Shown: positions 1-37,816, numbered from the stretch's first letter. The stretch: 47,753 nt of DNA from an uncultured Candidatus Saccharibacteria bacterium (GCA_964470765.1 CAYYDV010000002.1:1-47753); one strand, 5' to 3'. A program made the numbers and translations. The notes: generated by a model not told the origin, from the sequence alone.

Positions 1-997
1 CTTTCTTTGTAGCCGCTAAAGTCTCTTCTACTTTTTGAAGAGTAATTCTTTTTTTCAGATTATTTAATATTTCCTGGTCAGCAGATTCTACTCCATACAT
101 AACTTGATGACAACCCGCTTTTTTCATTTCCTGGAGAGTCTCAGAATCAACCGTATCCACCCTTGAAAAACAACACCAGGTTAAGTCAAGATTATTTTCT
201 AGAATAAGATTACAAAAATCTATCACATTTTTTCTATTCTTAGTAAAAGTATCATCGTAAAATGTTATATCTTTTATTCTATAATTCTTCTGAAGAAATA
301 TTATTTCTTCAACAATACTTTCATCTGACCTAAATCTTATTCTCTCTCCCAAAAAATTTCCTTTACAAAAAGTACACTTACCAGGACAACCTCTAGAAGT
401 AATCATTCCAGAAGAAGGTTTTCGCTTGTAAACACCAGAGGCAGGATAATACTTGTCCATGGGTAAAAGATCATAAGCCGGGAAAGGAAGACCATCAATA
501 TCGAGAATCATTGGCTGGGGCGGGTTTATAATAACTCTGCCATTTTTTTTGAAGCCAATCCCTTTAACTGCTTCGGGAGATTTATTAGAAAGCAACTCTA
601 AAAGAGTGTATTCTCCCTCCCCTATTACTGCATAATCCACCTCTTTGAAGCTTACTACTTCTTCCGGTCTAACGGATGGGTGAACTCCACCAATTATTAC
701 TTTTGTCTCTGGATAATTTTTTTTGACTATTTTAGCTACCTCAAGGGCATTATTAATAATGACGGTAGTAGCTGGAATCCCAATAAACCTAGGAGAAACA
801 TCTGGCAGGTATTCTTCAATTCTATCTAGCCCTATCTCTGAGGCATTACAATCTAAAATAGAAACTGAATAACCTTTCTCTCTTGCCAGAGCTGCTAAGA
901 GGGCTAATCCAAAGGGAGGAAGACAAGCAGAAACATTTTTCCAAATATTTCCCGATTCTCTATACAAAGGAGGGTTTATAAATAATACATCAATCAT
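1..997 (-). CDS. Cobalamin-binding-domain (class B type) radical SAM enzyme, partial; the C-terminus lies beyond the left window edge
   Basis: Absent from the ORF track because it has no stop inside the window. My translation from the ATG (complement of 995-997) reads MIDVLFINPPLYRESGNIWKNVSACLPPFGLALLAALAREKGYSVSILDCNA...VIIGGVHPS...MITSRGCPGKCTFCKG...YGVESADQEIL. It has an N-terminal B12-binding-type Rossmann region followed by a CxxxCxxC motif, and it is paralogous to 1638..3206, 6404..7837 and 36422..37816. Confidence 0.8.
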   Translation of the reverse strand, partial: MIDVLFINPPLYRESGNIWKNVSACLPPFGLALLAALAREKGYSVSILDCNASEIGLDRIEEYLPDVSPRFIGIPATTVIINNALEVAKIVKKNYPETKVIIGGVHPSVRPEEVVSFKEVDYAVIGEGEYTLLELLSNKSPEAVKGIGFKKNGRVIINPPQPMILDIDGLPFPAYDLLPMDKYYPASGVYKRKPSSGMITSRGCPGKCTFCKGNFLGERIRFRSDESIVEEIIFLQKNYRIKDITFYDDTFTKNRKNVIDFCNLILENNLDLTWCCFSRVDTVDSETLQEMKKAGCHQVMYGVESADQEILNNLKKRITLQKVEETLAATKK

Positions 998-1003
998 CAC
1001 TTT

Positions 1004-1564
1004 TTAAATAGAAATAGAAACTGTTTCAGTTGTTCTAATTTTTTTCCCAACCCAAACCTTAACTATTTCATAAGCTCCGAAAAAAACAGTTACATAAAAC
1101 AAATTTCCAAATATAGTATTTCTAAAAAAGGGCAAGGCCATTAGATAACACTGAATCAATCCAGAAAGAGTTTTTGCATACCAAGGAGTAAATATCCAAA
1201 CAGCAAAATTAGTTAAAAAGAAGAATATAAGGGCAGCTAAGAGAGAGCTTCCTAAGACTGTATACCATTTCTTATGTTTCTTTAGCCAAAAACCTAAAAC
1301 AACGCAAATTAAGAAACTTCCATAAACAATAATCATTAAGTTAACCTCGTAATAACCAATAAATATATCTGAAATTATTATTATTGCTAAAGGTAGGATA
1401 AAAGCTATCTTCTTGCGAAAGTAAACTCCCCCGAACAAAGCTATAGCTAGGATGGGAGAGAAATTAGGAGGATGAGGAAGAAACCTTAAACTAACTCCTA
1501 TTAAAATCAGAACTGAAGCAATTAAGAACTCTAAAATTTTGGTGTTTTTTGTTAGATTAGACAT
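1004..1564 (-). CDS. Small polytopic membrane protein (about 6 TM), possibly a DUF6580 / solitary S-component-like vitamin transporter
   Basis: 186-aa ORF that is hydrophobic throughout. It carries the motif LRFLPHPPNFSPILAIALFGG, which I associate with DUF6580-type putative transport proteins. The family assignment is from memory and is not verified. Confidence 0.55.
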   Translation of the reverse strand: MSNLTKNTKILEFLIASVLILIGVSLRFLPHPPNFSPILAIALFGGVYFRKKIAFILPLAIIIISDIFIGYYEVNLMIIVYGSFLICVVLGFWLKKHKKWYTVLGSSLLAALIFFFLTNFAVWIFTPWYAKTLSGLIQCYLMALPFFRNTIFGNLFYVTVFFGAYEIVKVWVGKKIRTTETVSISI

Positions 1565-1637
1565 ATGTTTTTTATTAACTTATATTATATTTTTATTTTT
1601 AGATGAATAATGTAGATTTTTTTACTAATTGCAGGGG

Positions 1638-3206: not shown

Positions 3207-3213
3207 TTTATTT

Positions 3214-3651
3214 TTAAAAAGGTGATTTTTCGAACTTAAATTCTATTTTATCACCTGGATTTATTTCTTGTTTATCAGCGGCGACCATAGATATTTCTCC
3301 ATTAACATAATACATCCAATATTTTTCATCCTGACCATTTTCTTTATTTCCAATAACCTCGATAAAGATTCCAATATCATAACTTTTTGTTTTCAAAGCT
3401 AAATTTAATTCTAATGCCCCTTTCTTTAATAAATCAAAAGCGGTCATTCCTTCTTTAAATTCAGCTTCGAAGGCCTTAGGTGGTTCTTCGCCTTCATCAA
3501 TAACTAAAACTACTTCTTGTTTAATCTCCTTTTGAGGAATTCTAATTTCTTCTTGGAAGACAGGTTGGCTAATCTTCTCAGAAAATATCAACCAAGCACT
3601 ACTGATGATTACTCCTATACCAATTATTATAAAAATAGTTGTTTTTTTCAT
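3214..3651 (-). CDS. Exported or membrane-anchored DUF4430 (transcobalamin-like C-terminal domain) protein
   Basis: 145 aa with an N-terminal signal/anchor, MKKTTIFIIIGIGVIISSAWL. The C-terminal segment GMTAFDLLKK...IFIEVIGNKENGQDEKYWMYYVNGEISMVAADKQEINPGDKIEFKF matches the DUF4430 pattern as I remember it (W-x-Y-x-V-N-G ... GD-x-I-x-F). Confidence 0.65.
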   Translation of the reverse strand: MKKTTIFIIIGIGVIISSAWLIFSEKISQPVFQEEIRIPQKEIKQEVVLVIDEGEEPPKAFEAEFKEGMTAFDLLKKGALELNLALKTKSYDIGIFIEVIGNKENGQDEKYWMYYVNGEISMVAADKQEINPGDKIEFKFEKSPF

Positions 3652-3735
3652 ATTAATTTAATTATTGAAGGTTGCTGTTATAAATAAAAATTGGAGCCTA
3701 ATATTCGCCACTTCTCACCCTGCTTAGAACCATTC

Positions 3736-4305
3736 TCAGTATCCCACGTAAGTTAACAAATTTAAAGAGATTAAATATTCTTGACGGCCTAAAATAAAAT
3801 TTAAAGCAAGCTCTTGAGTACCATTTTTTAGGTCAGCATTAGTAAGATTGTTAACAGAAAGCACAGAACAATCCTGTTTTGAATAACTATCCCATTCACC
3901 ACTATGGATCTTCAAACCATATTCTCCCCGTTTTGCCATTTCCAATATCTCTGTCCCCGGAAACGGTGTCATCATACCTATCGTTACAAAATCAGGATTT
4001 ATTTTCATCATAAGGTTTATGGAGTCATTTATTGTTTCAACTGTTTCCTCAGGGTGGCCAAAAATAAGGTTCATATATGTCCTCAGCCCTATTTTTTTTG
4101 ACCACTCAAAGGTATCAACAACTTGCTTAACTGTTATCCCCTTCTTTGAGTTTTTGAGTATCGTGTCATTTCCTGATTCCACGCCATAATTCACCATTAC
4201 ACAACCAACTTCTTTCATTTTCTTTAACATTTCGAAGTCAACATCGTCAACCCTTGTTTCACAATGCCATTCTATTTCTTTATTTATCCCCCTCTGTCGA
4301 ATATT
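3736..4305 (-). pseudogene. Remnant: C-terminal half of a B12-type radical SAM paralogue; the B12 domain and CxxxCxxC motif are missing
   Basis: The frame is open from 4305 (a stop codon lies at 4306-4308) and reads NIRQRGINKEIEWHCETRVDDVDFEMLKKMKEVGCVMVNYGVESGNDTILKNSKKGITVKQV... This aligns with the ...CFSRVDTVDSETLQEMKKAGCHQVMYGVESADQEIL part of the gene at 1..997. The upstream neighbour ends at 4343, so there is no room for the roughly 250 missing N-terminal residues. Confidence 0.7.
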
Positions 4306-4342: not shown

Positions 4343-5626
4343 TTACCAAAAAAAGCCACCTTCATAAGAGAAGATTTTGAAGACGTTAACACTTGAAATA
4401 ATTATTAAAAATACAAAAACCACTAAGTAAAAAACTGGAGAATACCAACTTTTGTATTTCTTCAGAAATCTAGCTACTCTATCTATTCCTAAAATGGTTA
4501 GAGGATAGATAACTGGAAATAACAAAAAAGCATGACGAGGAGAATAATAATTCATTATAAAAAATAAAGTAAAGAAGGAGAAAATTAAACCGAAACAAAA
4601 AAGTCTTTTTCTTTTAAAAGAAAGATCTCTAAAGCCGATGAGAGCGAAGAGGACAGGCACTAATAAAAATCCGTAGATGATAACATTAGTAAATTTAGGC
4701 AAGGCTTCAAGAAAAACTTCAGCTGTTTTAAACCAAGGCCAATAAAAAATCTTAAACATCCAAACACCCATATCAAAATCTATCACTTCAGTGGAAAAAT
4801 AACCAATCTTAAAAACTTTAGTTACCCATAAATACCATAGAGCCCGAGGAATTAAATGAATTATCAGAAATAAAACCCCTTCTTTATAACGTTTGAAGTA
4901 AATAGCTAATATTAAAATAAAAATTGGTATAGCAAAAATCATTTTCCCCAAAATTAAGATACCAATAATTAATGAAAAAATAATTAATTTTTTAATAGAA
5001 GGATGAGTTATATAGTTATAAAGCAAATAAAGATTGAAAATCACCATAAAAGCACCGAAGATATTAGTTTCGGGCTGAATTAACCAAATATGGGCAAAAG
5101 GAGAAAAGATCAATAAAACAGAAGAAAGAAAAGCTACCCGCCAAGATATTATTTTCTTCACCAATGAATAGAAAAAAAATACTGTAAGAAAAAATAGAAT
5201 AAAATTAAGGAAAATACCGGCAAGAAAAGTTAAAGCATAAGAAGAACCACCAATTAAATGTATTGGCCGAGAAATTAAATATACCAAAAAAGGATAGAGG
5301 GGACGGTTTAAATTGGCAAGGTGTCCCCTAAAATAATGCTGAGGGAAATCATGAGCCAATAACATATAACCTCCGCAATCAGAATTAATATGATAATCAG
5401 ATAAAAATGGGTAAATTTTTCCTGCTATTAAATTGTCAAGGGAATCAAATGAATAATCCTTATGAAAACTTAATTCTTCAATGGTTTTCCAATAGTCATT
5501 TGAAATATTATAAGCAGGAAATAAAAAACTGTAGAATAATTGACACAATATTAAAAAGAATAGAATAAGAAAAACTTTTTTCTTATTTTGAAGCAAACTT
5601 TCAATTTTGGTTAACGTATGGTTCAT
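4343..5626 (-). CDS. Polytopic membrane protein, probable GT-C fold glycosyltransferase (ArnT/PMT-like)
   Basis: 427 aa with 10 or more hydrophobic spans and a loop with acidic residues after TM1 (HKDYSFDSLDN). It carries RPLYPFLVYLISRP, which resembles the ArnT/PMT_2 family, and it lies three genes downstream of a polyprenyl-phosphate GT2 in the same co-directional array (a B12 radical SAM gene and a methyltransferase gene sit between). Confidence 0.5.
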   Translation of the reverse strand: MNHTLTKIESLLQNKKKVFLILFFLILCQLFYSFLFPAYNISNDYWKTIEELSFHKDYSFDSLDNLIAGKIYPFLSDYHINSDCGGYMLLAHDFPQHYFRGHLANLNRPLYPFLVYLISRPIHLIGGSSYALTFLAGIFLNFILFFLTVFFFYSLVKKIISWRVAFLSSVLLIFSPFAHIWLIQPETNIFGAFMVIFNLYLLYNYITHPSIKKLIIFSLIIGILILGKMIFAIPIFILILAIYFKRYKEGVLFLIIHLIPRALWYLWVTKVFKIGYFSTEVIDFDMGVWMFKIFYWPWFKTAEVFLEALPKFTNVIIYGFLLVPVLFALIGFRDLSFKRKRLFCFGLIFSFFTLFFIMNYYSPRHAFLLFPVIYPLTILGIDRVARFLKKYKSWYSPVFYLVVFVFLIIISSVNVFKIFSYEGGFFW

Positions 5627-5633: not shown

Positions 5634-6380
5634 TTATTTAGATGGTTTTTGAGCCGAAATTAATAAAGAACCAGCCAATTCTTTTATTAAGGGAATTTTC
5701 TCTAATAAATAATTAATACCCTTTGCTGGAGGAACAAAAAATTTCGGCAGAAAAGGATGGAGAAAATCAAAGGGTATTACGTTAATATTCTCAAAGTTAT
5801 TTTTCTCTAAAAGGCAGCGTATCTGCCAGCGAAAAAAAGCTGTCTCGTCCGGAGAATCACCAAGTATTTTTTTAATAAAGGTTATATTTTTTTGTATAAG
5901 AATTTGGGGGTTCAACATGTTTGGTTCGCTGAAAATCATAATTCCTTTTGGCTTTAACACACGATAAATATTCTTCAGGGCTAACTCTATATCTAAATGA
6001 TGTAAAATAGATATTCCACAGACTACATCAAAGTAATTATTAGAAAAATTTTCTAAGCTTTCTCCTCGGGCACACTGAAATTGAACATTAGAAAAAGAAG
6101 CTTTTTTTCTAGCTATATCCAAGAATTCTTTAAAAATATCAGTAGCAATAATTTTTGATTTTGAACGACTTAAATAATAAGTAAATTCACCCGTCCCGCA
6201 ACCTATTTCAAGAACTTTTTTATTTTCGTCTAAACTGGCTTTTTTGATAATAAGACTTGCCCTTCTCTTTACTCTCATTTTACCAACTAATCCTTCCCTC
6301 CCCCAAATTTTATCGGCCTGATTCAATATCTCTTTATCGTGTTGAATTTCTCTAATTTGACGCAACGTTAAATTAGCCAT
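5634..6380 (-). CDS. Class I SAM-dependent methyltransferase
   Basis: 248 aa with SAM-binding motif I (KVLEIGCGTGEFT) and the Methyltransf_11-like ISILHHL...VLKPKGIMIFSEP. Confidence 0.85.
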   Translation of the reverse strand: MANLTLRQIREIQHDKEILNQADKIWGREGLVGKMRVKRRASLIIKKASLDENKKVLEIGCGTGEFTYYLSRSKSKIIATDIFKEFLDIARKKASFSNVQFQCARGESLENFSNNYFDVVCGISILHHLDIELALKNIYRVLKPKGIMIFSEPNMLNPQILIQKNITFIKKILGDSPDETAFFRWQIRCLLEKNNFENINVIPFDFLHPFLPKFFVPPAKGINYLLEKIPLIKELAGSLLISAQKPSK

Positions 6381-6403: not shown

Positions 6404-7837
6404 CTATTTTCTAAAAAAAGTAAAAATAAATTTAAAACCAATGATTAAAATATTAAAAAGCTGGGTAGGAGTTTTTGCTATTTTTATAATTTTCCAAATG
6501 ATTTGAGGACGAAAATAAAATTTCTTATAAGCCAAAGAGATGTATTCTTTTACAATTTGTGATGTGAGCCACGGTGTCGATAAATTTGGTATTTCTTGAT
6601 TAATATCTTGCCAACTTTTACTAACTATCCATCTTTTTTCTGTGGCTTCCCTGTACAATTGAGACCCAGGGAAAGGAGTAGCAGCATAAAAATGAGCAAA
6701 AGTAAGAGGTAGAGAAAGAGCAAAATTAATAGTTTCTTTTAAAGTTTCTTCCGTTTCACCCGGGTAACCTAAAATAAAATGTCCATCTACAACTATTCCC
6801 GCTTTTGCCGCTTCTTTAACTATTCTTCTTCCTTCTTCAATGGAAGCAAGAGGTCCCTTATCGGCAAGTTTTAAGATTGAATTAGAACCAAATTCTAGAC
6901 CAAAGGCAATTTGCCAACAGCCGGCTTCTTTAAGTTCTTTAAATAAAGAGGGGTCAATTCTACTAGGTCGACTATTACTGACCCATCTAATTTTTTTATG
7001 CAATTCTTTTTTCTTTATTAAATTCAAAATGCTTCTTAAATATCTACTATCCATTGTTACAAACTCTGTCCAAAAAAGAAAATCTTTGATCCCATAATCT
7101 CTTATATTCATTTCTATTTCTTCGATTATTTTCTGGGGACTTCTTTTTCTCATTTTTTTTCCATAGTAAACAGAAGCGTTACAAAATTTACAATTAAAAG
7201 GACATCCTCTAGCGAAAGAAATCAAATTAAATGGTTTATTTAAAATCGGTAATTTATAATTATTAAAATCAACTCCTTTCCAGTGGGAAAATTCTAATTT
7301 ATCTAAATCCATCAGAAATTCCCTATTGGGATTTAAAATAATTTTTTTGCCCTCTCTGAAAGTCAAGCCTGGAATATCTCTAAAGTCATATTTATTTTTA
7401 AAAAAATTAGTTAAATCTTTAGCGGTAAGTTCTGGTTCGGCTCTAATAATAAAATCTAAAGAAGGAAATTCTTGAAGAGTCTCTTTAGACAGCTCGGTAA
7501 CGTGAATTCCGATGGCGGCTACCTTGATAGAAGGTTTTAATTCTTTAATTTTTGGCAAAAACCAACCCAAATCAGTAGCAATGGTTGGAGTGGTAGTAGA
7601 AATAAATATTAAATTGGGATTATAATTTTTTATTTTCTCAAGAGTCTGTCCTAAATCTAATGCCGCTGGACCACTATCAATAATAAGAGTATCAGCTATG
7701 GACTTTATCTGGCCTGCAATTAAAGCTAAACTTAAAGGCGGAAAAGGTGCACCCCAGATATCCCACTGTTGACAACGTCCTTCTCTTACCCATCTTTTTT
7801 TATCGGGAACAGGAGGATTAATAAGTAAAACCTTCAT
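6404..7837 (-). CDS. B12-binding-domain radical SAM enzyme
   Basis: 477 aa. The N-terminus is MKVLLINPP...PLSLALIAG. It has CxxxCxxC in FARGCPFNCKFCNASVYYG, followed by AFGLEFGSNSIL. Confidence 0.85.
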   Translation of the reverse strand: MKVLLINPPVPDKKRWVREGRCQQWDIWGAPFPPLSLALIAGQIKSIADTLIIDSGPAALDLGQTLEKIKNYNPNLIFISTTTPTIATDLGWFLPKIKELKPSIKVAAIGIHVTELSKETLQEFPSLDFIIRAEPELTAKDLTNFFKNKYDFRDIPGLTFREGKKIILNPNREFLMDLDKLEFSHWKGVDFNNYKLPILNKPFNLISFARGCPFNCKFCNASVYYGKKMRKRSPQKIIEEIEMNIRDYGIKDFLFWTEFVTMDSRYLRSILNLIKKKELHKKIRWVSNSRPSRIDPSLFKELKEAGCWQIAFGLEFGSNSILKLADKGPLASIEEGRRIVKEAAKAGIVVDGHFILGYPGETEETLKETINFALSLPLTFAHFYAATPFPGSQLYREATEKRWIVSKSWQDINQEIPNLSTPWLTSQIVKEYISLAYKKFYFRPQIIWKIIKIAKTPTQLFNILIIGFKFIFTFFRK

Positions 7838-7839
7838 AA

Positions 7840-8523
7840 TTAACCAAAAAATAAATATTTTATAAAACTATAAATATAACGAAAGGCAACTTTTCTTAAT
7901 TTAATGACTGACTCGCCGTATTCTCGCTTATACTCATGGGTGGAAACCTCCACCACTTTATACCCCTTCTTTAAAGTTTTAATCAGCATTTCTTGTTCAA
8001 TGGTTGTAATATTTTCTTTAAGATTTAATTTTCTAGCAATCTCGGTCTTAATGACCCTAAAACCATTTTGCGAATCAGTCAATTTCACTCCAAAACGATA
8101 ATTTATTCCTAATGTTATAATATCGCAGGCAACCATTCTTAAAAACTTATTAAGATCTCCGTGCAATTCATCACTCCCTCCTCTTCCCCGAGAACCAATC
8201 ACATAATCTGCTTTCTCTTTTATAATGGGTTTAATTAATTTGGGAATATCATTTGGATCATGAGATCCATCAGCATCTATAAAAACAATTATATCTCCTT
8301 TGACTCTTTTTATACCGCATCGCAAAGCATCACCCTTTCCTTTTCCATTATCTAAAATCACTCTGGCGCCCAAACTCTGAGCAATTTCTTTAGTTTTGTC
8401 TTGTGAATGACCATCCACTACTAATATTTCGTTTCCATAAGATTTACATTTGTTAATAATTTCCCCTATTGTTTTTTCCTCATTTCTTGCTGGAATAATA
8501 ATAGAGATAAAATTTTTTTCCAT
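7840..8523 (-). CDS. GT2 glycosyltransferase, polyprenyl-phosphate sugar synthase type (DPM1/ArnC/GtrB-like)
   Basis: Motifs ISIIIPARNEEKTIGEII, VVDGHSQDKT and FIDADGSHDP. The track start at 8535 is a TTG; the ATG at 8523 (MEKNF...) lies 5 nt after the fcl stop and is the more likely start. Confidence 0.8.
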   Translation of the reverse strand: MEKNFISIIIPARNEEKTIGEIINKCKSYGNEILVVDGHSQDKTKEIAQSLGARVILDNGKGKGDALRCGIKRVKGDIIVFIDADGSHDPNDIPKLIKPIIKEKADYVIGSRGRGGSDELHGDLNKFLRMVACDIITLGINYRFGVKLTDSQNGFRVIKTEIARKLNLKENITTIEQEMLIKTLKKGYKVVEVSTHEYKREYGESVIKLRKVAFRYIYSFIKYLFFG

Positions 8524-8528
8524 ATTAA

Positions 8529-9470
8529 TTAACAACTAAAACTACAATACCATTGGATAGTTTTCTTAAGACCTTCTTCAAATGAAGTAGATGCCCTAAA
8601 TCCAAATTCTTTTTCAGCTTTGAGAGTATCGAGACGACGCCGGGGCTGGCCATCGGGTTTGGAAGTATCCCAACGAATTTCTCCTTTAAAATTCATCAGT
8701 TTACAAATTAACTGAACCAAATCTTTTATTGAAATCTCCATTCCCGAGCCCAAATTTACCGGTTCTGATTTATCATATTTCTCAGTAGCCAAAATTATTC
8801 CCTCGGCCCCATCTTTTACATAAAGAAACTCTCGGGTTGCTTTACCTGTCCCCCAAGCCTCAATATAATTTCTTCCTTCTTCCTTTGCCTCATAAACTTT
8901 TCTAATAATGGCGGCAATAACATGGGAGGATTTGGGATCAAAATTATCCTCAGGACCGTACATATTGACCGGCAAAAGATAAATAGCATTAAACCCATAT
9001 TGCTGCCGATAGGCTTGAGCTTGAACTGAAAGCATTTTCTTGGCTAAACCATAGGGGGCATTAGTTTCTTCGGGATAACCGTTCCAGAGATCTTCTTCCT
9101 TAAAGGGAAGAGGGGTAAATTTGGGATAGCTACAAATTGTCCCAATAGCTACAAACTTCTCTACCCCGGCAAGTCGGGCTGCCTCTATTAATTGAATACC
9201 CATGATTGCGTTATCGTAAAACATTTCTCCGGGAATCTCTCGATTCAAGCCAATCCCCCCAACTTTAGCTGCTAAATGAATAACTAAATCTTGGTTTTTA
9301 ACTGCTTTCTGGCAATTCTCCCATTTCTTTAAATCTAATTCTTTAGCCCTTGGCAAAAATAAATTTTGTTCAGGAACCTTTCTTTTTTCTAATAAATTCT
9401 TAACCAAATGCTTTCCCACAAAACCATGGGCACCAGTTATTAAAATTTTCTTTTCTTTAAGATTAATCAT
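8529..9470 (-). CDS. fcl: GDP-L-fucose synthase (GDP-4-keto-6-deoxymannose 3,5-epimerase/4-reductase)
   Basis: 313 aa with [14 protein letters not shown] (NAD(P) binding), [10 protein letters not shown] (YxxxK) and [25 protein letters not shown]. It sits immediately downstream of gmd. Confidence 0.85.
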
Positions 9471-19087: not shown

Positions 19088-19110
19088 ACTTTAAAATGCT
19101 TTAATTTTCC

Positions 19111-19767: not shown

Positions 19768-19795
19768 GTTAGTTATTCTTTGTTAGTCAGACCTT

Positions 19796-19993: not shown

Positions 19994-19997
19994 AATT

Positions 19998-30172: not shown

Positions 30173-30976
30173 CTAAGTTGATGTGGGTACCCCCCAAAAT
30201 TCACAGTAACTACACAATGGCACTTTATTTCTTTTGCCTTCTATATGATATTTCAGCCATTTTCTTCTTTTGGGACTGTTCCAAATACCAACCAAAGGAG
30301 TTTTATTAGCATCTCCAATAACTCCTAACCTCAAAGGATCAAACCTAACACAAATAGAAACTTTACCAAATCTATCTATGCACATGTGATTGAGTAGGTC
30401 TAAACAGATTCCTATTTCTGGTTTGGTAGGATTTTTCTTATACTTAAAACTGCCTAGAGGATTATGTAATACCCTGGTAGCCACTATTCCTGGTAATTTT
30501 TTCCATTTTTCTGTATCTACTTTTCCAAGACATCTATATATTAAATTGGGTTTTTTATTACCTTTAATCCTTAAAAATTTTTTAACTAATTTATATTGTT
30601 CATCGCCTTCAGGATCATTTTCAATTACTGAAATAGTCAAAGTTTCTAGGTTGCTAATTATTTCATCAGCTTTTTCAACAATTAACTTCCCATTAGTATC
30701 TAGACACCTTATCTGTCTCTGGAATAACTTAGCAGCATCGCCAAATCGGGGATAAAGAAGAGATTCTCCGTTATTATGTAATTGGACCACTATTCCTTCG
30801 GGCAGTTGCTTAGCTATTTTCTCTACCAACTTAAAGTCCATATCCCCCCAATCACATAATTCAGGATGTTCTTTTTCTAACTTACGTCTTCCACAACAAA
30901 AACATTTTTTATTACATCTACTGGTTAACTCAATATTAACTGTGGTCAATCCATTAAATTGTTTTTCTTGTTTCAT
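30173..30976 (-). CDS. Radical SAM protein (non-B12; C-terminal Cys-rich auxiliary/twitch-like region)
   Basis: 267 aa with CxxxCxxC in LTSRCNKKCFCCGRRK and C-terminal cysteines (ICLDLLNHMCIDRFGKVSICV...PLCSYCEFWG). Confidence 0.75.
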   Translation of the reverse strand: MKQEKQFNGLTTVNIELTSRCNKKCFCCGRRKLEKEHPELCDWGDMDFKLVEKIAKQLPEGIVVQLHNNGESLLYPRFGDAAKLFQRQIRCLDTNGKLIVEKADEIISNLETLTISVIENDPEGDEQYKLVKKFLRIKGNKKPNLIYRCLGKVDTEKWKKLPGIVATRVLHNPLGSFKYKKNPTKPEIGICLDLLNHMCIDRFGKVSICVRFDPLRLGVIGDANKTPLVGIWNSPKRRKWLKYHIEGKRNKVPLCSYCEFWGVPTST

Positions 30977-31541
30977 GTTTAAAGATTTTATTCTCTACTA
31001 ACCCGCAGATAATATGACCTATGGTAATATGGGCTTCTTGAATTCGGGGAGTATTATTGGAGGGGACATTAAGTAGGGTATCAACTTTGTCTTTTAATTT
31101 ACCGCCACTGCTCCCAGTCAAGGCAACTGTCTTTGCTCCTTTTCCTTTAGCTTTCAAAATTCCTCTGAGGACATCCTCGGAGTTTCCACTAGTGCTAATG
31201 CCGATAACTATATCTTTATCAGTAACCAAACTCTCAATCTGTCTTTCGAAAATCTTATCAAAATCATAGTCGTTGGCAATTGCACTCATTATCGAGGTAT
31301 TAGTGGTTAATGCTAAAGCTGGTAAACTTTTTCTTTCTAGTTTATATTTTCCAATCAGTTCAGCAGCAATGTGTTGAGCATCAGCTGCTGAACCGCCATT
31401 GCCAAATAAAATAACTTTACCCTCATTTTTATAACAATCAATAATTAACCGGGCGATTTCATCTATTTTTTCTATCCCATTGTCCAATATTCGATTCATA
31501 ACTTCAATATGTTCTTTTAATTCGTGATTTATTTTTTCCAT
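30954..31541 (-). CDS. SIS-domain sugar-phosphate isomerase, GmhA (phosphoheptose isomerase)-like
   Basis: 195 aa with ILFGNGGSAADAQHIAAELIGKY, ALTTNTSIMSAIANDY, GISTSGNSEDV and QEAHITIGHIIC, a close match to the GmhA pattern. Confidence 0.8.
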   Translation of the reverse strand: MEKINHELKEHIEVMNRILDNGIEKIDEIARLIIDCYKNEGKVILFGNGGSAADAQHIAAELIGKYKLERKSLPALALTTNTSIMSAIANDYDFDKIFERQIESLVTDKDIVIGISTSGNSEDVLRGILKAKGKGAKTVALTGSSGGKLKDKVDTLLNVPSNNTPRIQEAHITIGHIICGLVENKIFKHETRKTI

Positions 31542-31547
31542 ATTAAA

Positions 31548-32423
31548 CTATTTAATCTTTCTTAATTTTTCAATTATTGGCTTTTCGCTTTCGAAAACTT
31601 TTTTTATACCATCCCCTAAACACGCTGGGATATTCCTAATATCCCTCACTACCCTATATATACCATCTGGCCCCAAACTAGCTGCTTGATCGCTTCCCCA
31701 CATCGACCTATCTAAAGTAATATGAGCTTCTACTATAGAAGCACCAACAGTTGCAGCCATTACCGGTTCAACTATACCAGCTCCATGACTGCTATAACCA
31801 ATAGGGCAATTAAAAGTTTTTATCATCCAAGGAATAACATTTAGATTCAATTCTTCTATTTTTGAAGGATAAGTTGAAGTACAGTGAAGTAAAGCTGAGT
31901 TGTCTTCGCTAATGACCTCTATCGCATGTCTAATCTGTTCGGTAGTACTCATACCAGTAGACATAATTATTGGTTTTCCTTTAGATTTAATTTTCTTTAG
32001 CAATTCATCGTCTGTCAAACAAGCTGAAGCTACTTTATAACAAGGAACATCGAACTGCTCTAGAAAATCAACGCTTTTTATGTCCCAAGGAGAGGCAAAC
32101 CATATTATTCCTTTTTCTTTACAATATTTATCAATTTCTTCGTATTCTTTTTCGCCAAATTCAAGTCCTCTTTTCAAATCACCGTTGGTCGGACCAAAAG
32201 GATTCTCTCTTGTCTTTGCTAATTCCTCTGGCGTATAAACTAATTCAATGGTCCTTTTCTGAAATTTTACTGCGTCGCATCCAGTAAAAGCTGCCATGTC
32301 TATTAACTTTTTAACATTGTTCATATCGCCATTATGATTAATGCCTATCTCTGCTGTTATAAAAACTTTCTCACATCTGCCTATTGTTTTATCTCTTATT
32401 TTTAATTTTTCTTCTTCTGCCAT
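31548..32423 (-). CDS. NeuB-like PEP-condensing synthase, short form without the SAF domain
   Basis: 291 aa with VFITAEIGINHNGDMNNVKKLIDMAAFTGCDAVKFQKR, GYSSHG and EAHITLDR. The protein ends about 25 residues after the TIM-barrel core, so it has no SAF domain. Confidence 0.8.
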   Translation of the reverse strand: MAEEEKLKIRDKTIGRCEKVFITAEIGINHNGDMNNVKKLIDMAAFTGCDAVKFQKRTIELVYTPEELAKTRENPFGPTNGDLKRGLEFGEKEYEEIDKYCKEKGIIWFASPWDIKSVDFLEQFDVPCYKVASACLTDDELLKKIKSKGKPIIMSTGMSTTEQIRHAIEVISEDNSALLHCTSTYPSKIEELNLNVIPWMIKTFNCPIGYSSHGAGIVEPVMAATVGASIVEAHITLDRSMWGSDQAASLGPDGIYRVVRDIRNIPACLGDGIKKVFESEKPIIEKLRKIK

Positions 32424-32457
32424 GTTTTTATTTTATTTGATTAATTTTTCCGACCTT

Positions 32458-33129
32458 TTAGTTATTTTTAATTCCGGTTCCCAAAATCATTAATTCTCTT
32501 GACCATCTGATAAACTTATTCTTGTATGTCCTTCTAACTGGTCCTAATAATTGCAAAATCTTAGAAAATATCTTTAAACAAGGGTATTTCCATAAAACGG
32601 GTAATTGATAAAACAATTCTGATTTTACATTTTTAAAATTATGTATCTTTAACAAATCACTTATAGACTTTGCAGTATAAGGATGATGATGAGTATAATC
32701 ATCATAAAATACATGTTTCACGCTATGCCAATCTGGAGTCATAATAATTATTGTTCCTCCTGGTTTTAAAACCCTTTGGCATTCTTTAATAAAATGTTCT
32801 GGGCTCCAAAGATGTTCAATAACTGATTTGGAAAATACAAAATCAAATGTTTCATCGTTGAATGGAAAAGGACCCTTTTCAATATTAGCTAATTTAATTT
32901 CGATATCTTTTAAAATCTCTGAATGACTTTTTTCCCAATCTAATCCAAAAATTTCTAATTTTAAATCTTTAAAACCTTTAGTAAAATCGCCTCGACCGCA
33001 ACCAACATCTAAGAGCTTGTCGCCGACTTTCATATTGTAACGTTCAAATAAATACTTACAAAGCTTATAGGGATAATCAGTATAAGGTCTTTCTCTTTCG
33101 TTGTAAATGGTTTTGATATAGCCTGACAT
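32458..33129 (-). CDS. Class I SAM-dependent methyltransferase
   Basis: 223 aa with LLDVGCGRGDFT and SVIEHLWSPEHFIKECQRVLKPGGTIII. Confidence 0.8.
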   Translation of the reverse strand: MSGYIKTIYNERERPYTDYPYKLCKYLFERYNMKVGDKLLDVGCGRGDFTKGFKDLKLEIFGLDWEKSHSEILKDIEIKLANIEKGPFPFNDETFDFVFSKSVIEHLWSPEHFIKECQRVLKPGGTIIIMTPDWHSVKHVFYDDYTHHHPYTAKSISDLLKIHNFKNVKSELFYQLPVLWKYPCLKIFSKILQLLGPVRRTYKNKFIRWSRELMILGTGIKNN

Positions 33130-33133
33130 AAGT

Positions 33134-33562
33134 TTAAATTTCTTCGACTAATTCAACAGGAACATTATCAGGATCAAAGCAAAACACGACTTTAGCTTTT
33201 CCGTTCGGAGATAATTGAGGAGAAGAAATAAATCTAATCCCTTTTTCTTTTAATCGTTTGTATTCAAAATCAATATCTTCTACAGTAAAAGCTGGATGAG
33301 AAGCACCGATATCAAAGATTTCTTTGTTTTCCATTTTTTTACCCCCATGGGATTGATATGATAGAAGCTCTATCAAATTTCCATCATCAGCTATCATTTT
33401 TACTGTTCTTACTTTTACCTTTTCAAGTCCTAATATTGTATCAATAAACTTCCCTTCTTCTAACGCATCAACTTTGATTTCAAATCCTAACAGATCTCTG
33501 TAAAATTCAAGGGATTTTTCAATATCACTTACCACTATTCCGAAATGACGTATTGCTTTCAT
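33134..33562 (-). CDS. VOC (glyoxalase/bleomycin-resistance/dioxygenase) superfamily protein
   Basis: 142 aa with the N-terminus IRHFGIVVSDIEKSLEFYRDLLGF and the second module ASHPAFTVEDID. Confidence 0.75.
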   Translation of the reverse strand: MKAIRHFGIVVSDIEKSLEFYRDLLGFEIKVDALEEGKFIDTILGLEKVKVRTVKMIADDGNLIELLSYQSHGGKKMENKEIFDIGASHPAFTVEDIDFEYKRLKEKGIRFISSPQLSPNGKAKVVFCFDPDNVPVELVEEI

Positions 33563-33566
33563 ATTT

Positions 33567-34757
33567 TTAATCTTTATTAATTAATTCTTCGAAGCACTCT
33601 CCTAAGACCTTGACTCCTTCAGCTAACGCCTCTTCAGGTATAGTCAATGGTGGACCTATCTTAATTGTATCTCCATAAGTACTGACTAAGAGTAGCCCTT
33701 TCTCTGCACATCTTTCTATAATCTTTTGTGTTAACTCCGCATCTCCTGTATATAATGCCCATATCATTCCACGACCATATACCTTGTGATTAGGAAATGT
33801 TTTTCTTAATAATTCCCCGAATCGATTACCTTTTGCAGCGGCTTCTTCTAATAATTTCCGGTTCTCAATAATTTCAAGTGTAGCTAAAGCAGTAGCACAA
33901 CATACTGGATTTCCGCTATGAGTAGACCAAAGGTCATCACTTAATTCTAATAGCTTTTTACAACCTACAACCGCGCTAATAGGCAACCCTCCACCAATAG
34001 CTTTACCAATAGTGATGAAATCTGGTTGAATATCATAATTTTGATAACCAAACCATTTAGCTGTTCTTCCAACTCCAGACTGCATTTCGTCAAAGCCAAC
34101 TGGGATATCATTTTCCTGCGCCCACTTAGACCAAGTTCTAACCCATTCATAAGGCAAAAACTTTGCATCTCTTCCTCTAAAAGCCTGTAAGAAAACACCC
34201 GCAATCTCATCGTGATTGACTTTATCAGGAAGCATTGACTCATCAATTACATTGTCTAAAAGCGATCTACAAGCTGCGGTACTACCGTAATAAGCTCCTT
34301 TTATTGATAATATCTTTCCTTTTTTATTTCGCTTCATCATCTGTATTACAGAATCGTTAGCTTCTGAGCCGGTAACAGTAAATAACACTTTATCCATTTG
34401 AGTAATTTCACATAATTTCTTTGCCAATTTTATACGGGAATCATTAGGAAAAACATAGGAATGTATTAACTTATTATTGACTTTATCTGTAATGGCGGCG
34501 CTTACTTCCTTTGCACAATGACCAACATTAGCCACAAATATACCAGAAGTAAAATCTATCCATTTATTCCCCCATTTGTCATAAACTTGGAAATCATCCG
34601 TCCTGTCCCAAATTACAGGCAATTCATGATCGCATATACTACTTGCCTCATATTTTTTCATATCTTCTAATAGAGGTATGGAATCAGGAACAGGAATTTT
34701 AGTCTTTATCCTTCGAAATTTTGTATCAATTGACTGAACTTTTTTAGACATAGACAT
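33567..34757 (-). CDS. Class-III (fold type I, omega-type) PLP aminotransferase
   Basis: 396 aa with TVTGSEANDSVIQM and FDEMQSGVGRTAKWFGYQNYDIQPDFITIGKAIGGGLP (the DExQ..GRTG.. and Lys motifs). Confidence 0.85.
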   Translation of the reverse strand: MSMSKKVQSIDTKFRRIKTKIPVPDSIPLLEDMKKYEASSICDHELPVIWDRTDDFQVYDKWGNKWIDFTSGIFVANVGHCAKEVSAAITDKVNNKLIHSYVFPNDSRIKLAKKLCEITQMDKVLFTVTGSEANDSVIQMMKRNKKGKILSIKGAYYGSTAACRSLLDNVIDESMLPDKVNHDEIAGVFLQAFRGRDAKFLPYEWVRTWSKWAQENDIPVGFDEMQSGVGRTAKWFGYQNYDIQPDFITIGKAIGGGLPISAVVGCKKLLELSDDLWSTHSGNPVCCATALATLEIIENRKLLEEAAAKGNRFGELLRKTFPNHKVYGRGMIWALYTGDAELTQKIIERCAEKGLLLVSTYGDTIKIGPPLTIPEEALAEGVKVLGECFEELINKD

Positions 34758-34772
34758 AATTTTTAATATTTT

Positions 34773-35528
34773 TTAAGTTATTGGCTTGAAATTATTCTTT
34801 AAGAATTCATGTATTTTATATTTTTGTTTTTCCAAATTAAATCTAAAAAATTCTAAATCTTCCGGACGATCTAATTCTCCGGTATCTGGTGAAATGAAAG
34901 CCATTATCTTTGACCCGTGAAAAACACCTTTATCTGTTATGGTTTGATTCTTTACAACATCTACGTATCCATCGGGCTGATAAACAGGTGAAAAAGATTG
35001 ACGCGGTAAATTGTAATATTCGGGCCTTGTATCATTCGGGAATAATCCAACAAAGAAACCATTTTCAATAGCAAAACATTTATAAGGTGATTCTCTTAAT
35101 TCATGACCGGATCGAAGAGAAGTAGCCTCTTTATTTTGAACAAATTGTTCAATCGCCTTATCAATTAATTCGGGATCTCTCAAAGGAGTGGTGGGCCTAA
35201 GATGAACTAAATATTCAGGGCAATATCCTTCATTATTTTTAAGCCATTCAATAGCATGCTGAAACAATTCTATATCAGGAGAGTCGTCTCTAGCAAACTC
35301 TTCTGGTCTCAGAAAAGGAACTTCAGCTCCATAAAGTCTACTAATTTCGGCTATTTCTTCACTATCAGTGCTAACAACAACTCTGGAAATAAGCTTTGAA
35401 AGTTTTGCGGCTATTATTGAATAAGCAATAAGAGGATAATCTCCTAAATTTACTATATTTTTTTTAGGAATCGATTTCGAGCCACCTCGAGCGGGAATTA
35501 TAGCAATGACTTCTTTATTCTTATCCAT
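34773..35528 (-). CDS. Acylneuraminate cytidylyltransferase family (NeuA-like CMP-ulosonate synthetase)
   Basis: 251 aa with VIAIIPARGGSKSIPKKNI and LRPTTPLR. Confidence 0.85.
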   Translation of the reverse strand: MDKNKEVIAIIPARGGSKSIPKKNIVNLGDYPLIAYSIIAAKLSKLISRVVVSTDSEEIAEISRLYGAEVPFLRPEEFARDDSPDIELFQHAIEWLKNNEGYCPEYLVHLRPTTPLRDPELIDKAIEQFVQNKEATSLRSGHELRESPYKCFAIENGFFVGLFPNDTRPEYYNLPRQSFSPVYQPDGYVDVVKNQTITDKGVFHGSKIMAFISPDTGELDRPEDLEFFRFNLEKQKYKIHEFLKNNFKPIT

Positions 35529-35531
35529 TTT

Positions 35532-36407
35532 TTATGGTTTAGCTATTGAAATTAAAGTATCTGATTGACCTTTCTGACATAAATATTCTTTATAATAATC
35601 TTCTAGCCACTTATAAGAGCCTTTAGTTTGAAATACAGGCCTCTCTATCTGAGGTTTTCCAAGAATAAACCAATTCATAAAATTGTCTATACTATATCTA
35701 TGGGTATAAAGACTCCTAATTATAGAAAAACCTGCTTTTTGAACAACTTTTTTCAGAGTTGTAGCATTAAAGTAAGATAAATGTGCTCTCTGCCAATAAA
35801 AATCTCTATAATTTTTGGAAACTGTAAGCAATAAATCATCTACATTAGGAACCTCTATAATCAATTTTCCATTTTTGTTAAGGTGTTTTTTTATAATTTT
35901 TAGAAATAGTATGGGGTCATAAAGATGTTCTAAGACATGAAATAATGTAATGCAATCAAATTTAGATAAACCAGCTTCGTTGTGATATAAATTAACATCT
36001 AAAACCTTGGCATCGGTAATTTTAGCTGATATTAGCCGTTTCTCTTTTGAAATCTCAATTCCAGTGACATCATATCTTAGATTTTCCATTTCTTTAAGGA
36101 AAAATCCGTAACCAGAACCTATGTCTAAAACTTTTTTTCCTTTTAGCACTTCTTTTGAAATCAATTCTGTTCGTCTTTTTGTGTCAGCCAAGGATTTTTT
36201 TCTAATTACTTTTAAATCCTGTGGTTCTCCGATATTTTTCGATTGACGATCTTCGTCATAAAACTCCTTATCCTCCTTAATCGAAGGCGTTGGAAACAAC
36301 TGCAAAAGCTGACATTTTTGGCATTTCACAATTTTATGTTTATTGGAATCCCGAACTCTTGGTGAAATTATCTTAAATTTTTTGCCGTTACAAACAATAC
36401 ACTTCAT
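35532..36407 (-). CDS. Class I SAM-dependent methyltransferase with an N-terminal zinc-ribbon
   Basis: 291 aa. MKCIVCNGKKF...KCQKCQLLQ gives two CxxC pairs, with VLDIGSGYGFFL and FHVLEHLYDP downstream. Confidence 0.8.
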   Translation of the reverse strand: MKCIVCNGKKFKIISPRVRDSNKHKIVKCQKCQLLQLFPTPSIKEDKEFYDEDRQSKNIGEPQDLKVIRKKSLADTKRRTELISKEVLKGKKVLDIGSGYGFFLKEMENLRYDVTGIEISKEKRLISAKITDAKVLDVNLYHNEAGLSKFDCITLFHVLEHLYDPILFLKIIKKHLNKNGKLIIEVPNVDDLLLTVSKNYRDFYWQRAHLSYFNATTLKKVVQKAGFSIIRSLYTHRYSIDNFMNWFILGKPQIERPVFQTKGSYKWLEDYYKEYLCQKGQSDTLISIAKP

Positions 36408-36421
36408 AATTTAGTGATGAT

Positions 36422-37816
36422 TTAATCATCTTTTTCCTTATTATAATGTCTTGGCCCTCTAAAAGAGGTTTTCCCCATAAAATATAAATCGTAAAAATCT
36501 TTTATTAATTTATTTGCCGCATCCATATCTTTTGTAGTATACATATAGTGATCTATTATTAAATCTTTATTGACGGCGAAAAGTAATTCATAGTATTTAT
36601 TCAATGGGATATCAGTAAAATTTACTGTAACTAAATCTGAATTTTTGAATTTATTGAAAAAATCTTCGGGACCTGTCAAAAGACCTCTTCGAATTGCCTC
36701 ATAATACAAATCAGAGCCTGGATAGGGAGTAACTGGTTTAATTGTTCGTATCTGATCATAAGTATTATATTTTTTAATTAGTTCTACGTTACCTTTTAAT
36801 GACTCCTCAGTGTCTCCGACATTACCCCATATAAAGTTCAATCCTAAACCTATTCCTACTTTTCTTGTGATTTCCGCTGCTTTGATATTTTGTTCAACCG
36901 TGGTGTTCTTATTCATAAGATTTAAAACATTCTGGTCTGATGACTCCATTCCGAAATTAAGAAATTTACATCCGCATTCTTTTAACAATTCAGCGATTTC
37001 TTCATCAAATAAATTAACCCGAGCTTCGCAGTAAAACTTTATTTTCAAACCAGCTTCCTTCAGGGCATCCCTAAACTCATATACTCTTTTTTTTGAAATA
37101 ATAAATAAATCGTCTTCTATTCCAAAATAATTTACACCATAATCTTTATTTAAAATCTTCATCTCTTCAATAACGTTATTTATGCTTCTAAGTCTAATGC
37201 CTTTTTCCATTCGATAACAAAAACTACATCGATTAACGCAACCCCTGCTCGTAATGATACTGAAAGTAATATCTTCATTCGTTGCGCCCGAAGGTTTAAA
37301 ACATTTTGTATATTTTTCCATCGGAAATAATGACCACTCGGGAAAAGGAATAGAATCTAAATTTATAACCGGCTGACGTCTCTCATTAACAACTATCTCG
37401 CCATTTATTAAGTAAGCGGTACTTTTTACTTTAGATAAATTACCTCTCTCAATTTTACATTGTACCAGTTCGACAATTGTCTTTTCTGCTTCGCCTAAAA
37501 TAATAATGTCGGCTTTTGTTTTTTGTAAAATGTACTCTGGTATTGGAGAAGAACCAGGACCTCCTAAAACTAACCAAGCATTTTTTTTATGCAAATTTAT
37601 TATCTCGCAAAGTGGTTCTATTGTTTCCTTGAACCTTGCTGCTAAAAATCCAACGCCTATTATGTCAAATTCGTTTTCTTCTAAAAACTCTGCTAATTCG
37701 TCATTAGTATAATGAAATACGTCTTGACAATAAACTGTAACATCAGCACCGTTTTTTTTAAGAACGGCTGTCATATATGCAGGGCCCAGTGGAAAATAAT
37801 TGTCTTCCTGATACAA
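36422..37816 (-). CDS. B12-binding-domain radical SAM enzyme (start codon uncertain)
   Basis: It has PLGPAYMTAVLKKNGADV, IIILGEAE and CxxxCxxC in TSRGCVNRCSFCYRMEKG. The track start is the TTG at 37816, but the conserved N-terminal strand (KVLFIIHD) is encoded upstream of it, in frame, with no ATG/GTG/TTG available. Confidence 0.85.
   Translation of the reverse strand: MYQEDNYFPLGPAYMTAVLKKNGADVTVYCQDVFHYTNDELAEFLEENEFDIIGVGFLAARFKETIEPLCEIINLHKKNAWLVLGGPGSSPIPEYILQKTKADIIILGEAEKTIVELVQCKIERGNLSKVKSTAYLINGEIVVNERRQPVINLDSIPFPEWSLFPMEKYTKCFKPSGATNEDITFSIITSRGCVNRCSFCYRMEKGIRLRSINNVIEEMKILNKDYGVNYFGIEDDLFIISKKRVYEFRDALKEAGLKIKFYCEARVNLFDEEIAELLKECGCKFLNFGMESSDQNVLNLMNKNTTVEQNIKAAEITRKVGIGLGLNFIWGNVGDTEESLKGNVELIKKYNTYDQIRTIKPVTPYPGSDLYYEAIRRGLLTGPEDFFNKFKNSDLVTVNFTDIPLNKYYELLFAVNKDLIIDHYMYTTKDMDAANKLIKDFYDLYFMGKTSFRGPRHYNKEKDD

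Follow-up and report, generated by a model that had tools for sequence, protein, structure and literature searches.

Divergent B12-type radical SAM families in a mosaic surface-glycan island of a Patescibacteria bacterium

Introduction

Class B radical S-adenosylmethionine (SAM) enzymes are known for the tailoring of antibiotics, cofactors and lipids, whereas the literature searched describes none that serves ordinary glycans of the cell surface, such as sialic-acid-like sugars and lipid-linked monosaccharides. GenK and GenD1 of the gentamicin pathway and MoeK5 of the moenomycin pathway are listed as Csp3 methyltransferases (PMC12931638). Four genes of this type, here named rS1 to rS4, are found in a 47,753-nt stretch of DNA from an uncultured Candidatus Saccharibacteria bacterium (GCA_964470765.1, CAYYDV010000002.1:1-47753). 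This whole stretch, hereafter the window, is an entire contig of a 712-kb assembly (86 contigs, 87% complete), and nearly all of its genes lie on the minus strand, forming one long glycan island. The four genes are as follows:

2..1000, minus strand: rS1, motif CPGKCTFC; Pfam B12-binding 85.6 bits, Radical_SAM 73.9 bits; C-terminus cut by the contig end
1638..3206, minus strand: rS2, 522 aa, motif CPNQCTYC; B12-binding 40.9 bits, Radical_SAM 90.2 bits
6404..7837, minus strand: rS3, motif CPFNCKFC; Radical_SAM 91.3 bits, B12-binding 25.0 bits against a gathering score of 32.1
36422..37861, minus strand: rS4, motif CVNRCSFC; B12-binding 42.6 bits, Radical_SAM 76.9 bits

Compared by description, GenK, GenD1 and MoeK5 resemble the window genes in having an N-terminal Rossmann-type B12 domain with a CxxxCxxC core and in tailoring sugars within a sugar cluster. 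They differ in serving antibiotic secondary metabolites rather than cell-surface glycans. The sugar that MoeK5 methylates is carried by a lipid phosphate at that stage, which resembles the role proposed below for rS3. The pairing seen for the window families, with NeuB and cytidine monophosphate (CMP) transferase genes or with a Dpm1-type family 2 glycosyltransferase (GT2), is not described for any known class B member.

AprD4, the radical SAM 1,2-diol dehydratase of apramycin biosynthesis, is alike in its two domains, its length of about 450–480 aa and its aminoglycoside sugar substrate. It differs in that the NCBIfam AprD4 model gives the window genes 49–80 bits against a cut-off of 500, that identity in structural alignments is 17–20%, and that AprD4 binds no cobalamin (PMC12931638), whereas the window genes are accompanied by B12-uptake genes. 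In the synthesis of the hopanoid side chain, the GT2 enzyme HpnI places a sugar on a lipid, which the B12-type radical SAM enzyme HpnJ then remodels. HpnJ, with a cut-off of 578 bits, is the top curated family for rS1 (159 bits), rS2 (114 bits) and rS3 (233 bits, in an alignment along almost the whole protein). The window GT2 differs from HpnI in being closer to AglJ, PpgS and ArnC, and no hopanoid genes were seen; since its partner is a GT-C transferase, the sugar would be passed to another acceptor and not kept on the lipid as with HpnJ.

Three-component glycosylation systems consist of a GT2 of the GtrB/CsbB/ArnC type, a flippase and a GT-C enzyme of the YfhO/ArnT type, and their lipid-linked sugar is sometimes modified before transfer, as in pentofuranose systems (PMC11127046). 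The window likewise combines a GT2 and a GT-C enzyme with a modifying enzyme between loading and transfer (cf. ArnD), with the differences that this enzyme is a class-B-type radical SAM protein and that no flippase gene was identified. No paper tying radical SAM enzymes to GtrB, YfhO, ArnT or GT-C systems was found in the literature search. The pathways to legionaminic, pseudaminic and neuraminic acids (NeuB, NeuC/LegG, LegB/C/H, CMP-synthetase; PtmG/PtmH) contain, as described, no radical SAM step, whereas operons of this kind harbour orthologues of rS2 and rS4, in many cases alongside genes typical of acetamidino formation; the search found no paper that brings radical SAM enzymes together with nonulosonic, legionaminic and pseudaminic acids or with Patescibacteria. 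None of these closest known systems includes the families of the window, which are uncharacterised and widespread.

The observed gene content, family separation and conserved neighbourhoods are, with moderate confidence, best explained as a whole by separate sugar-tailoring families, in which rS3 forms a unit with its GT2, rS2 and rS4 belong to nonulosonic-acid pathways, the cobalamin cofactor is imported, and carbon methylation is the leading chemistry.

Results and discussion

Four separate radical SAM families

All four of the B12-domain radical SAM genes that the original prediction had described are found with their motifs and domains. Class B membership is indicated by the CxxxCxxC motif and by matches to PF04055 (74–91 bits) in each of rS1 to rS4, while the gathering score of the B12-binding family PF02310 is passed by rS1, rS2 and rS4, with rS3 below it. 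An AlphaFold model of rS3 has the Rossmann-like N-terminal domain despite the sub-threshold score. According to tblastn, every B12-type radical SAM gene of the assembly sits on the window contig. The predicted unusual density holds up: in a PF02310 search of 101 same-order genomes (0.3–1.5 Mb in size), 69 have no such gene and the remainder mostly have one to three, and only three (with 5, 8 and 12) exceed the four of this genome. The 12 B12-domain genes belong to genome G080. In each fetched relative locus, the B12-type radical SAM genes likewise occur in clusters, with NeuB, DegT, cytidylyltransferase, GT2 and Wzx genes around them. The density is real and unusual, yet it forms the upper tail of a recurring pattern. 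The prediction also took radical modification to be rare for surface polysaccharides, which is right for the characterised glycans and wrong for the genomes, since 32 of the 101 relatives carry such genes, clustered among glycan genes.

The four genes are only 23–29% identical to each other in pairwise comparison. They also lie apart in a maximum-likelihood tree, built with 118 class-B-type sequences drawn from every fetched locus, with support values of 99 for the rS2 clade, 100 for the rS4 clade (26 sequences) and 100 for the rS3 clade (nine sequences). Labels for gene context are more clustered on this tree than shuffled labels, none of 500 shuffles being as clustered. In the favoured account, each of the four genes represents a sugar-tailoring family of its own that has spread horizontally. 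rS1 is without a close orthologue, its nearest relatives in the tree being at most 41% identical; some of these adjoin a Dpm1-like GT2 and others adjoin NeuB or a CMP-transferase. Because the gene is cut by the contig end and lacks a close orthologue, rS1 is not assignable to a family.

One further gene on the same contig is a decayed relative:

3736..4305, minus strand: radical SAM remnant that keeps just the C-terminal half, an open frame of 189 codons that spans only positions 93–165 of the Radical_SAM profile

The remnant has neither a B12 domain nor the Cys motif by Pfam search and motif check, and it shares 48% identity over 64 residues with the C-terminal part of rS1. Recent local duplication was considered as the source of the density and is ruled out by the low identity of the paralogues and their different clades; only the remnant resembles another window gene, rS1.

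For rS4, the gene and motif were correctly recognised in the original prediction, while the start placed at 37816 makes the gene too short. The TTG at 37816 is the first canonical start, and it falls inside a conserved N-terminal strand (KVLFIIHD); orthologous proteins begin some 15 residues before that point, with MxxxGKVLFIIHD, in which H and D are invariant. Upstream of 37816 the frame stays open without ATG, GTG or TTG, so that the gene either starts at a non-canonical codon or is defective at its 5′ end. A single plausible codon is available, an ATT at 37861, 28 nt past the stop codon of the Wzx gene (window 37816-37892), and this ATT is the probable start.

rS2 and rS4 orthologues in nonulosonic-acid loci

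The rS4 family comprises at least 120 clusters with at least 64% identity to rS4. The best 120 are 64–78% identical and about 475 aa long, and they come from Patescibacteria, one deltaproteobacterium and one Flavobacterium. A NeuB-type synthase and/or a CTP_transf_3 cytidylyltransferase is found in 23 of the 26 fetched loci with rS4 orthologues (59–79% identical), and two of the three loci without either are contigs shorter than 6 kb. Many of these loci also contain the genes typical of acetamidino formation, one HisF-like, one HisH-like and a third of about 400 aa without a Pfam match. The window itself belongs to this type of locus, as NeuB (Pfam 261 and 263 bits) and CTP_transf_3 are each represented by two genes, all of which score under the NeuB, PseI and PseF equivalog cut-offs.

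Orthologues of rS2 (49–89% identical) are found in Portnoybacteria, Omnitrophota, Planctomycetota, Verrucomicrobiae and Bacteroidia, and in all six loci they lie at most three genes from NeuB and a CTP_transf_3 cytidylyltransferase. A phylum-wide search for rS2 orthologues gave a match in one of 400 other genomes, at 29–33% identity, and this near-empty result points to a patchy family. In loci L083 and L091 the rS2 and rS4 families occur in one operon, as in the window. Most of module 2 of the window, the ulosonic-acid module listed below, is syntenic in L040 (Staskawiczbacteria), where an rS4 orthologue directly follows a radical SAM/SPASM gene, and parts of the module recur in L042, L043 and L052.

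Two natural fusions extend this picture. In P0261 (L084, 4171-6768; 865 aa), a single case, an rS2 orthologue is fused to a class I methyltransferase of the Methyltransf_23 family, and in P0347 (L085, 9001-11688; 895 aa), which was read on 24 contigs, an rS2 orthologue is fused to an iron-containing alcohol dehydrogenase (Fe-ADH). Both fusions sit between NeuB/NeuC-like genes and cytidylyltransferase genes. An Fe-ADH gene is also found directly beside rS4 orthologues in L054 (4172-5194), L091 (15930-16952) and L083 (16504-17664), and three genes away in L040. The dehydrogenase next to rS4 may serve as a redox partner step, either an oxidation for transamination or a reduction after dehydration.

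rS3 and its glycosyltransferase partner

rS3 lies in a tight block of four genes, given here in transcription order around rS3 (6404..7837):

7840..8535, minus strand: GT2 of the Dpm1/AglJ/ArnC type, Pfam Glycos_transf_2 109 bits, 2 nt upstream of rS3
5634..6380, minus strand: class I methyltransferase (Methyltransf_11), accessory, 23 nt downstream of rS3 (6404 to 6380)
4343..5626, minus strand: GT-C type (PMT_2) membrane glycosyltransferase, Pfam 28.8 bits against a cut-off of 26.1, final gene of the block

Orthologues of rS3 are numerous, about 477 aa long and 45–74% identical, and they occur in at least four phyla. Nine of their loci, eight of them distinct and with rS3 orthologues of 47–74% identity, were fetched from Patescibacteria, Smithella, Desulforhabdus and Desulfarculaceae (Thermodesulfobacteriota), two Acidobacteriota and one unclassified bacterium. 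A GT2 gene that is 56–80% identical to the window GT2 lies directly upstream of the rS3 orthologue in all nine. The top NCBIfam matches of the window GT2, all under their cut-offs, are AglJ (151 bits), PpgS, dolichyl-phosphate hexose transferase and ArnC, enzymes that load sugars onto polyprenyl phosphate. The constant position of such a GT2 upstream of rS3 implies the tailoring of a polyprenyl-phosphate sugar, and rS3 would accordingly alter a lipid-linked monosaccharide.

Polytopic membrane proteins adjoin or neighbour the GT2-rS3 pair in the orthologous loci. They include the GT-C type Pfam families PMT_2 (window, L001, L003, L008), YfhO (L006) and DUF2142 (L026), as well as proteins without a Pfam match (L001, L009). 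The layout of the GT2-rS3 unit is that of three-component extracytoplasmic glycosylation systems, and the methyltransferase at 5634-6380 is a local insertion into it. Compared with the rS2 and rS4 families, rS3 orthologues have a C-terminal helix of slightly stronger hydrophobic and amphipathic character, which hints weakly at membrane association. An EamA-family gene is found 7 kb from the block on the opposite strand.

With rS2 and rS4 orthologues inside NeuB/CMP-transferase operons and rS3 orthologues beside a GT2 of the polyprenyl-phosphate type, the earlier placement of the radical SAM genes in sugar pathways is borne out, and a sugar-tailoring role is well supported at the level of gene neighbourhood.

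Cobalamin supply

The genes transcribed last in the window are, in order, the radical SAM remnant (3736-4305), DUF4430, rS2 (1638-3206), DUF6580 and rS1 (2-1000), so that two candidate uptake genes are interleaved with rS2 and rS1:

3214..3651, minus strand: DUF4430 protein, partner of DUF6580, Pfam 63.6 bits
1004..1564, minus strand: DUF6580 polytopic membrane protein, Pfam 178 bits, probable corrinoid transporter

DUF4430 is the domain family of the C-terminal part of animal cobalamin carriers. A DUF4430-DUF6580 pair with 51–72% identity to that of the window stands behind B12-type radical SAM genes in L077, in L081 and in L055, where the gene just before it is an rS4 orthologue, and a few genes from a B12-type radical SAM gene in L079. 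Among the 101 relatives, 15 have both DUF6580 and PF02310, 17 have PF02310 only, eight have DUF6580 only and 61 have neither (odds ratio 6.7, Fisher p = 2e-4). Judged by the coordinates, no more than about 3 kb separates DUF6580 from a B12-domain gene in 12 of the 15 that carry both.

Cobalamin riboswitches (RF00174 or RF01482) head DUF6580 operons in three same-order genomes (L092 82-213; L093 2221-2361, minus strand; L101 162-310), whose DUF6580 homologues are 59–66% identical to that of the window. The operon in L092 also encodes DUF4430, and those in L093 and L101 also encode larger unknown proteins. Because these homologues sit behind cobalamin riboswitches, the DUF4430/DUF6580 pair is probably a corrinoid importer. 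CbiB and CobS were not found in the genome, which suggests that the cofactor is probably imported by this pair. DUF6580 looks like an undescribed corrinoid transporter family. No paper mentioning it was found in the literature search, and neither DUF4430 nor DUF6580 has a sequence match in the Protein Data Bank (PDB). The adjacent DUF pair, the riboswitches in relatives and the co-occurrence indirectly support real cobalamin use by rS1, rS2 and rS4, and the pair could serve as a genomic marker for such use in similar loci. None of these results bears directly on rS3.

Reaction chemistry

Cobalamin use, substrate and type of reaction we infer from these neighbourhoods together with family scores and structural comparisons. 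None of rS1 to rS4 reaches the cut-off of a curated NCBIfam model (HpnJ, BchE, PhpK/P-methylases, methyl-coenzyme M reductase (MCR) glutamine C-methylase, HpnR, KedN5, TsrM, BzaD, AprD4, ArsL and the ladderane radical SAM enzyme). Besides the HpnJ scores given above, rS4 reaches 134 bits with the BchE model against a cut-off of 481, and all other comparisons give at most 159 bits against cut-offs of 250–775. AlphaFold models of rS3 (predicted local distance difference test, pLDDT, 92.2) and of an rS4 orthologue (pLDDT 87.6) match TsrM, OxsB, MgmA, CysS, TokK and AprD4 over both domains, with template modelling (TM) scores of 0.64–0.80. For the rS4 orthologue, AprD4 is best by TM-score and TsrM has the lowest E-value. 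Overall, AprD4, MgmA and TsrM come nearest among the solved structures. The models confirm the predicted class B architecture; methylases and non-methylases are not separable by fold.

The most likely chemistry of rS1, rS2 and rS4 would be a cobalamin-mediated methyl transfer to an unactivated carbon of a sugar or acyl group. For rS3, radical dehydration or rearrangement appears about as likely as methylation. Carbon methylation is thus the leading chemistry for the set, plausible though unproven, and weakest for rS3.

Several observations weigh against this account. Synteny speaks for membership in a pathway, while substrate and reaction lie beyond its reach. The top-scoring curated families, HpnJ and BchE, are non-methylating, and the scores are far under their cut-offs. 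AprD4 (PDB 6FD2), which is without cobalamin, is the best PDB sequence match for rS2, rS3 and rS4 and the best fold match for the rS3 model (TM 0.76/0.80). The B12-domain score of rS3 is under the Pfam threshold, and no B12-uptake gene was seen beside an rS3 orthologue in any of the nine loci. The Rfam scan found no cobalamin riboswitch in the window. No flippase of the GtrA/GtcA or ArnE/F type was identified in the four-gene rS3 block among open reading frames (ORFs) of at least 80 aa. The Fe-ADH genes beside several rS4 orthologues fit a dehydratase-plus-reductase scheme too.

The strongest competing explanation draws on much of the same evidence. It holds that some or all of the enzymes, and rS3 in particular, work without cobalamin in the manner of AprD4 or are radical enzymes of another non-methylating type, and that their 'B12 domain' is only a structural Rossmann fold, as AprD4 shows that the two-domain fold can be without cobalamin (PMC12931638). 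Such enzymes would catalyse dehydration, deoxygenation, epimerisation or ring contraction of a sugar and pass the keto product to a neighbouring reductase or aminotransferase. Apart from the sequence and fold matches to AprD4, the low B12-domain score of rS3 and the ranking of HpnJ and BchE, it is favoured by the Fe-ADH that is fused to an rS2 orthologue and stands beside three rS4 orthologues, an arrangement that recalls AprD4 and its reductase AprD3. Every paralogue, however, scores lower with the AprD4 model than with the models of HpnJ, BchE, PhpK or the MCR glutamine methylase, and no reductase belongs to the conserved GT2-rS3 unit. Genes for B12 uptake alternate with rS1 and rS2 in the window, and in L055 they come immediately after an rS4 orthologue. 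The radical SAM genes are also the only B12-domain genes of the genome, so that an adjacent importer is hard to explain if none of them uses cobalamin. We regard this explanation as possible but doubtful.

Methyltransferase pairing

The prediction had also stressed that two of the radical SAM genes are closely followed by a class I methyltransferase, and this is indeed the case in the window, at 23 nt behind rS3 and at 14 nt behind rS4:

35532..36407, minus strand: class I methyltransferase (Methyltransf_23), variable accessory, 14 nt downstream of rS4 (36422 to 36407)

By permutation, the finding that two of the four radical SAM genes of the window are directly followed by one of its four methyltransferases has p = 0.04, or 0.16 when a methyltransferase on either side counts, and the order is thus only weakly non-random. 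A radical SAM enzyme and its methyltransferase could on this basis be an obligate functional pair, in which C-methylation and O- or N-methylation follow each other or the methyltransferase serves the corrinoid cofactor. The order of rS4, methyltransferase and cytidylyltransferase is repeated in L045, the closest rS4 relative with a downstream flank (79% identical), and the fusion P0261 joins both enzyme types, its methyltransferase half aligning with the one at 35532-36407 (22% identity, E = 7e-7).

As a conserved unit, however, the pairing fails the comparative check. A methyltransferase is adjacent in none of the nine rS3 loci, none of the six rS2 loci and two of the 26 rS4 loci (L045, L061). 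Of the whole set of 117 fetched B12-type radical SAM ORFs, six have a methyltransferase as neighbour. In L042, whose rS4 orthologue is 78% identical, the cytidylyltransferase follows rS4 directly with no methyltransferase between. The two methyltransferases of the window are themselves only 29% identical over 130 residues (E = 4e-6). Class B methylases, moreover, recharge their own cobalamin from SAM. An obligate pair is accordingly improbable; the methyltransferases are frequent, exchangeable accessories of these loci, and their pairing with the radical SAM genes is incidental. The single rS2 fusion shows that both enzyme types can share a pathway, not that they form an obligate unit.

Non-sugar substrates

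In L083 (14045-19131; Portnoybacteria), a Fom1-like cytidylyltransferase-phosphoenolpyruvate (PEP) mutase fusion, a phosphonopyruvate decarboxylase and an Fe-ADH form a Fom1/Fom2/FomC-like phosphonate cassette that directly precedes the rS4 orthologue. That the enzymes act on non-sugars (a membrane lipid, a Fom3-like phosphonate head group or a peptide) and lie in the glycan island by chance is highly improbable, for although this cassette and the weak matches to the HpnJ, ladderane and PhpK models could be read in that way, PEP mutase is found in one of the 26 rS4 loci (L083) and is absent from the window and the whole assembly, the conserved neighbours in every family are NeuB, CMP-transferase or GT2, no curated cut-off for lipid, cofactor or ribosomally synthesised peptide enzymes is reached, and no precursor-peptide or peptidase genes were seen among the Pfam results of the window. 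A general role of rS4 as a Fom3-like phosphonate methylase, judged by gene neighbourhood, is ruled out by the same distribution of PEP mutase.

Proposed pathway and significance

In the favoured account of separate sugar-tailoring families, the GT2 would most likely load a monosaccharide onto polyprenyl phosphate, rS3 would then alter the lipid-linked sugar on the cytoplasmic side, and outside the membrane the GT-C enzyme would hand the product on to an acceptor of the envelope. The likeliest substrate of rS2 and rS4 would be the nine-carbon sugar, either as such or CMP-activated, and the class I methyltransferases would add ordinary O- or N-methyl groups. If this holds, three-component glycosylation of the envelope gains a new kind of chemistry through the GT2-rS3 unit.

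In Magnetospirillum gryphiswaldense, ulosonic acids that are CMP-activated and have ten backbone carbons are reported from mass spectrometry and are so far unexplained (bioRxiv 10.64898/2026.04.20.719630). As a tentative and rather speculative proposal, rS2 and rS4 might be the missing enzymes for such C10 ulosonic acids, through cobalamin-dependent C-methylation of a skeleton of the legionaminic or pseudaminic type (e.g., conversion of the C9 methyl to an ethyl group), and rS3 with its GT2 might separately constitute a new step of three-component envelope glycosylation, in which a monosaccharide linked to polyprenyl phosphate undergoes radical remodelling before flipping and transfer. Should carbon methylation be the reaction, the window families would provide concrete candidate genes for these compounds. 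The size of the families, their spread over many phyla and their retention in genomes of about 0.7 Mb that import the cofactor argue for an important surface function.

Layout of the island and related loci

As a whole, the window is a mosaic island of surface-glycan genes, and its host belongs to the Patescibacteria (Paceibacteria type). The remaining parts of the island, in transcription order on the minus strand, are the following:

Start of transcription of the island: sugar-1-phosphate nucleotidyltransferase and Wzx-type flippase, then rS4, then the Methyltransf_23 methyltransferase
30954..35528, minus strand: ulosonic-acid module 2, with PseF-like cytidylyltransferase, class-III aminotransferase, VOC/glyoxalase protein, methyltransferase, NeuB without SAF domain and GmhA-like SIS protein
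30173..30976, minus strand: radical SAM/SPASM gene of module 2, 267 aa, with CNKKCFCC at residue 21
Between module 2 and module 1: phospho-alcohol module, with nucleoside triphosphate (NTP)-transferase, HD protein, major facilitator superfamily (MFS) transporter and cytidine diphosphate (CDP)-alcohol phosphotransferase
16924..22999, minus strand: nonulosonic-acid module 1, with DegT aminotransferase, NeuB synthase with SAF domain, GT2, formyltransferase-like gene, CBS-SDR gene and cytidylyltransferase
After module 1: amino-sugar cassette, GDP-mannose 4,6-dehydratase and epimerase/reductase

Both additional genes counted in the original prediction, the decayed paralogue and the one non-B12 radical SAM gene, are present. 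The latter, at 30173..30976, is short for its class, and only its SPASM part is detected by Pfam. A radical SAM/SPASM-type gene holds the same position in L040. The window gene shares 23 nt (30954-30976) with the beginning of the GmhA-like SIS gene, an overlap that suggests translational coupling. A much larger protein with a radical SAM/SPASM domain, of 1388 aa, is encoded in the nonulosonic-acid locus L084 (10123-14289) and also contains class I methyltransferase, TylF-type methyltransferase and glycosyltransferase domains.

Runs of radical SAM genes are found in other loci as well. Two to three consecutive, divergent B12-type radical SAM genes, 25–33% identical to rS3 or rS4, lie beside several Dpm1-like GT2 genes in L068 (9467-13646), L082 (12539-15329) and L071 (2597-7698). 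Four tandem B12-type radical SAM genes, one of them with a frame of 1217 aa, are found in the cultured acetogen Acetobacterium tundrae DSM 9173 (L030, 1-9197), where they form a clade of their own in the tree.

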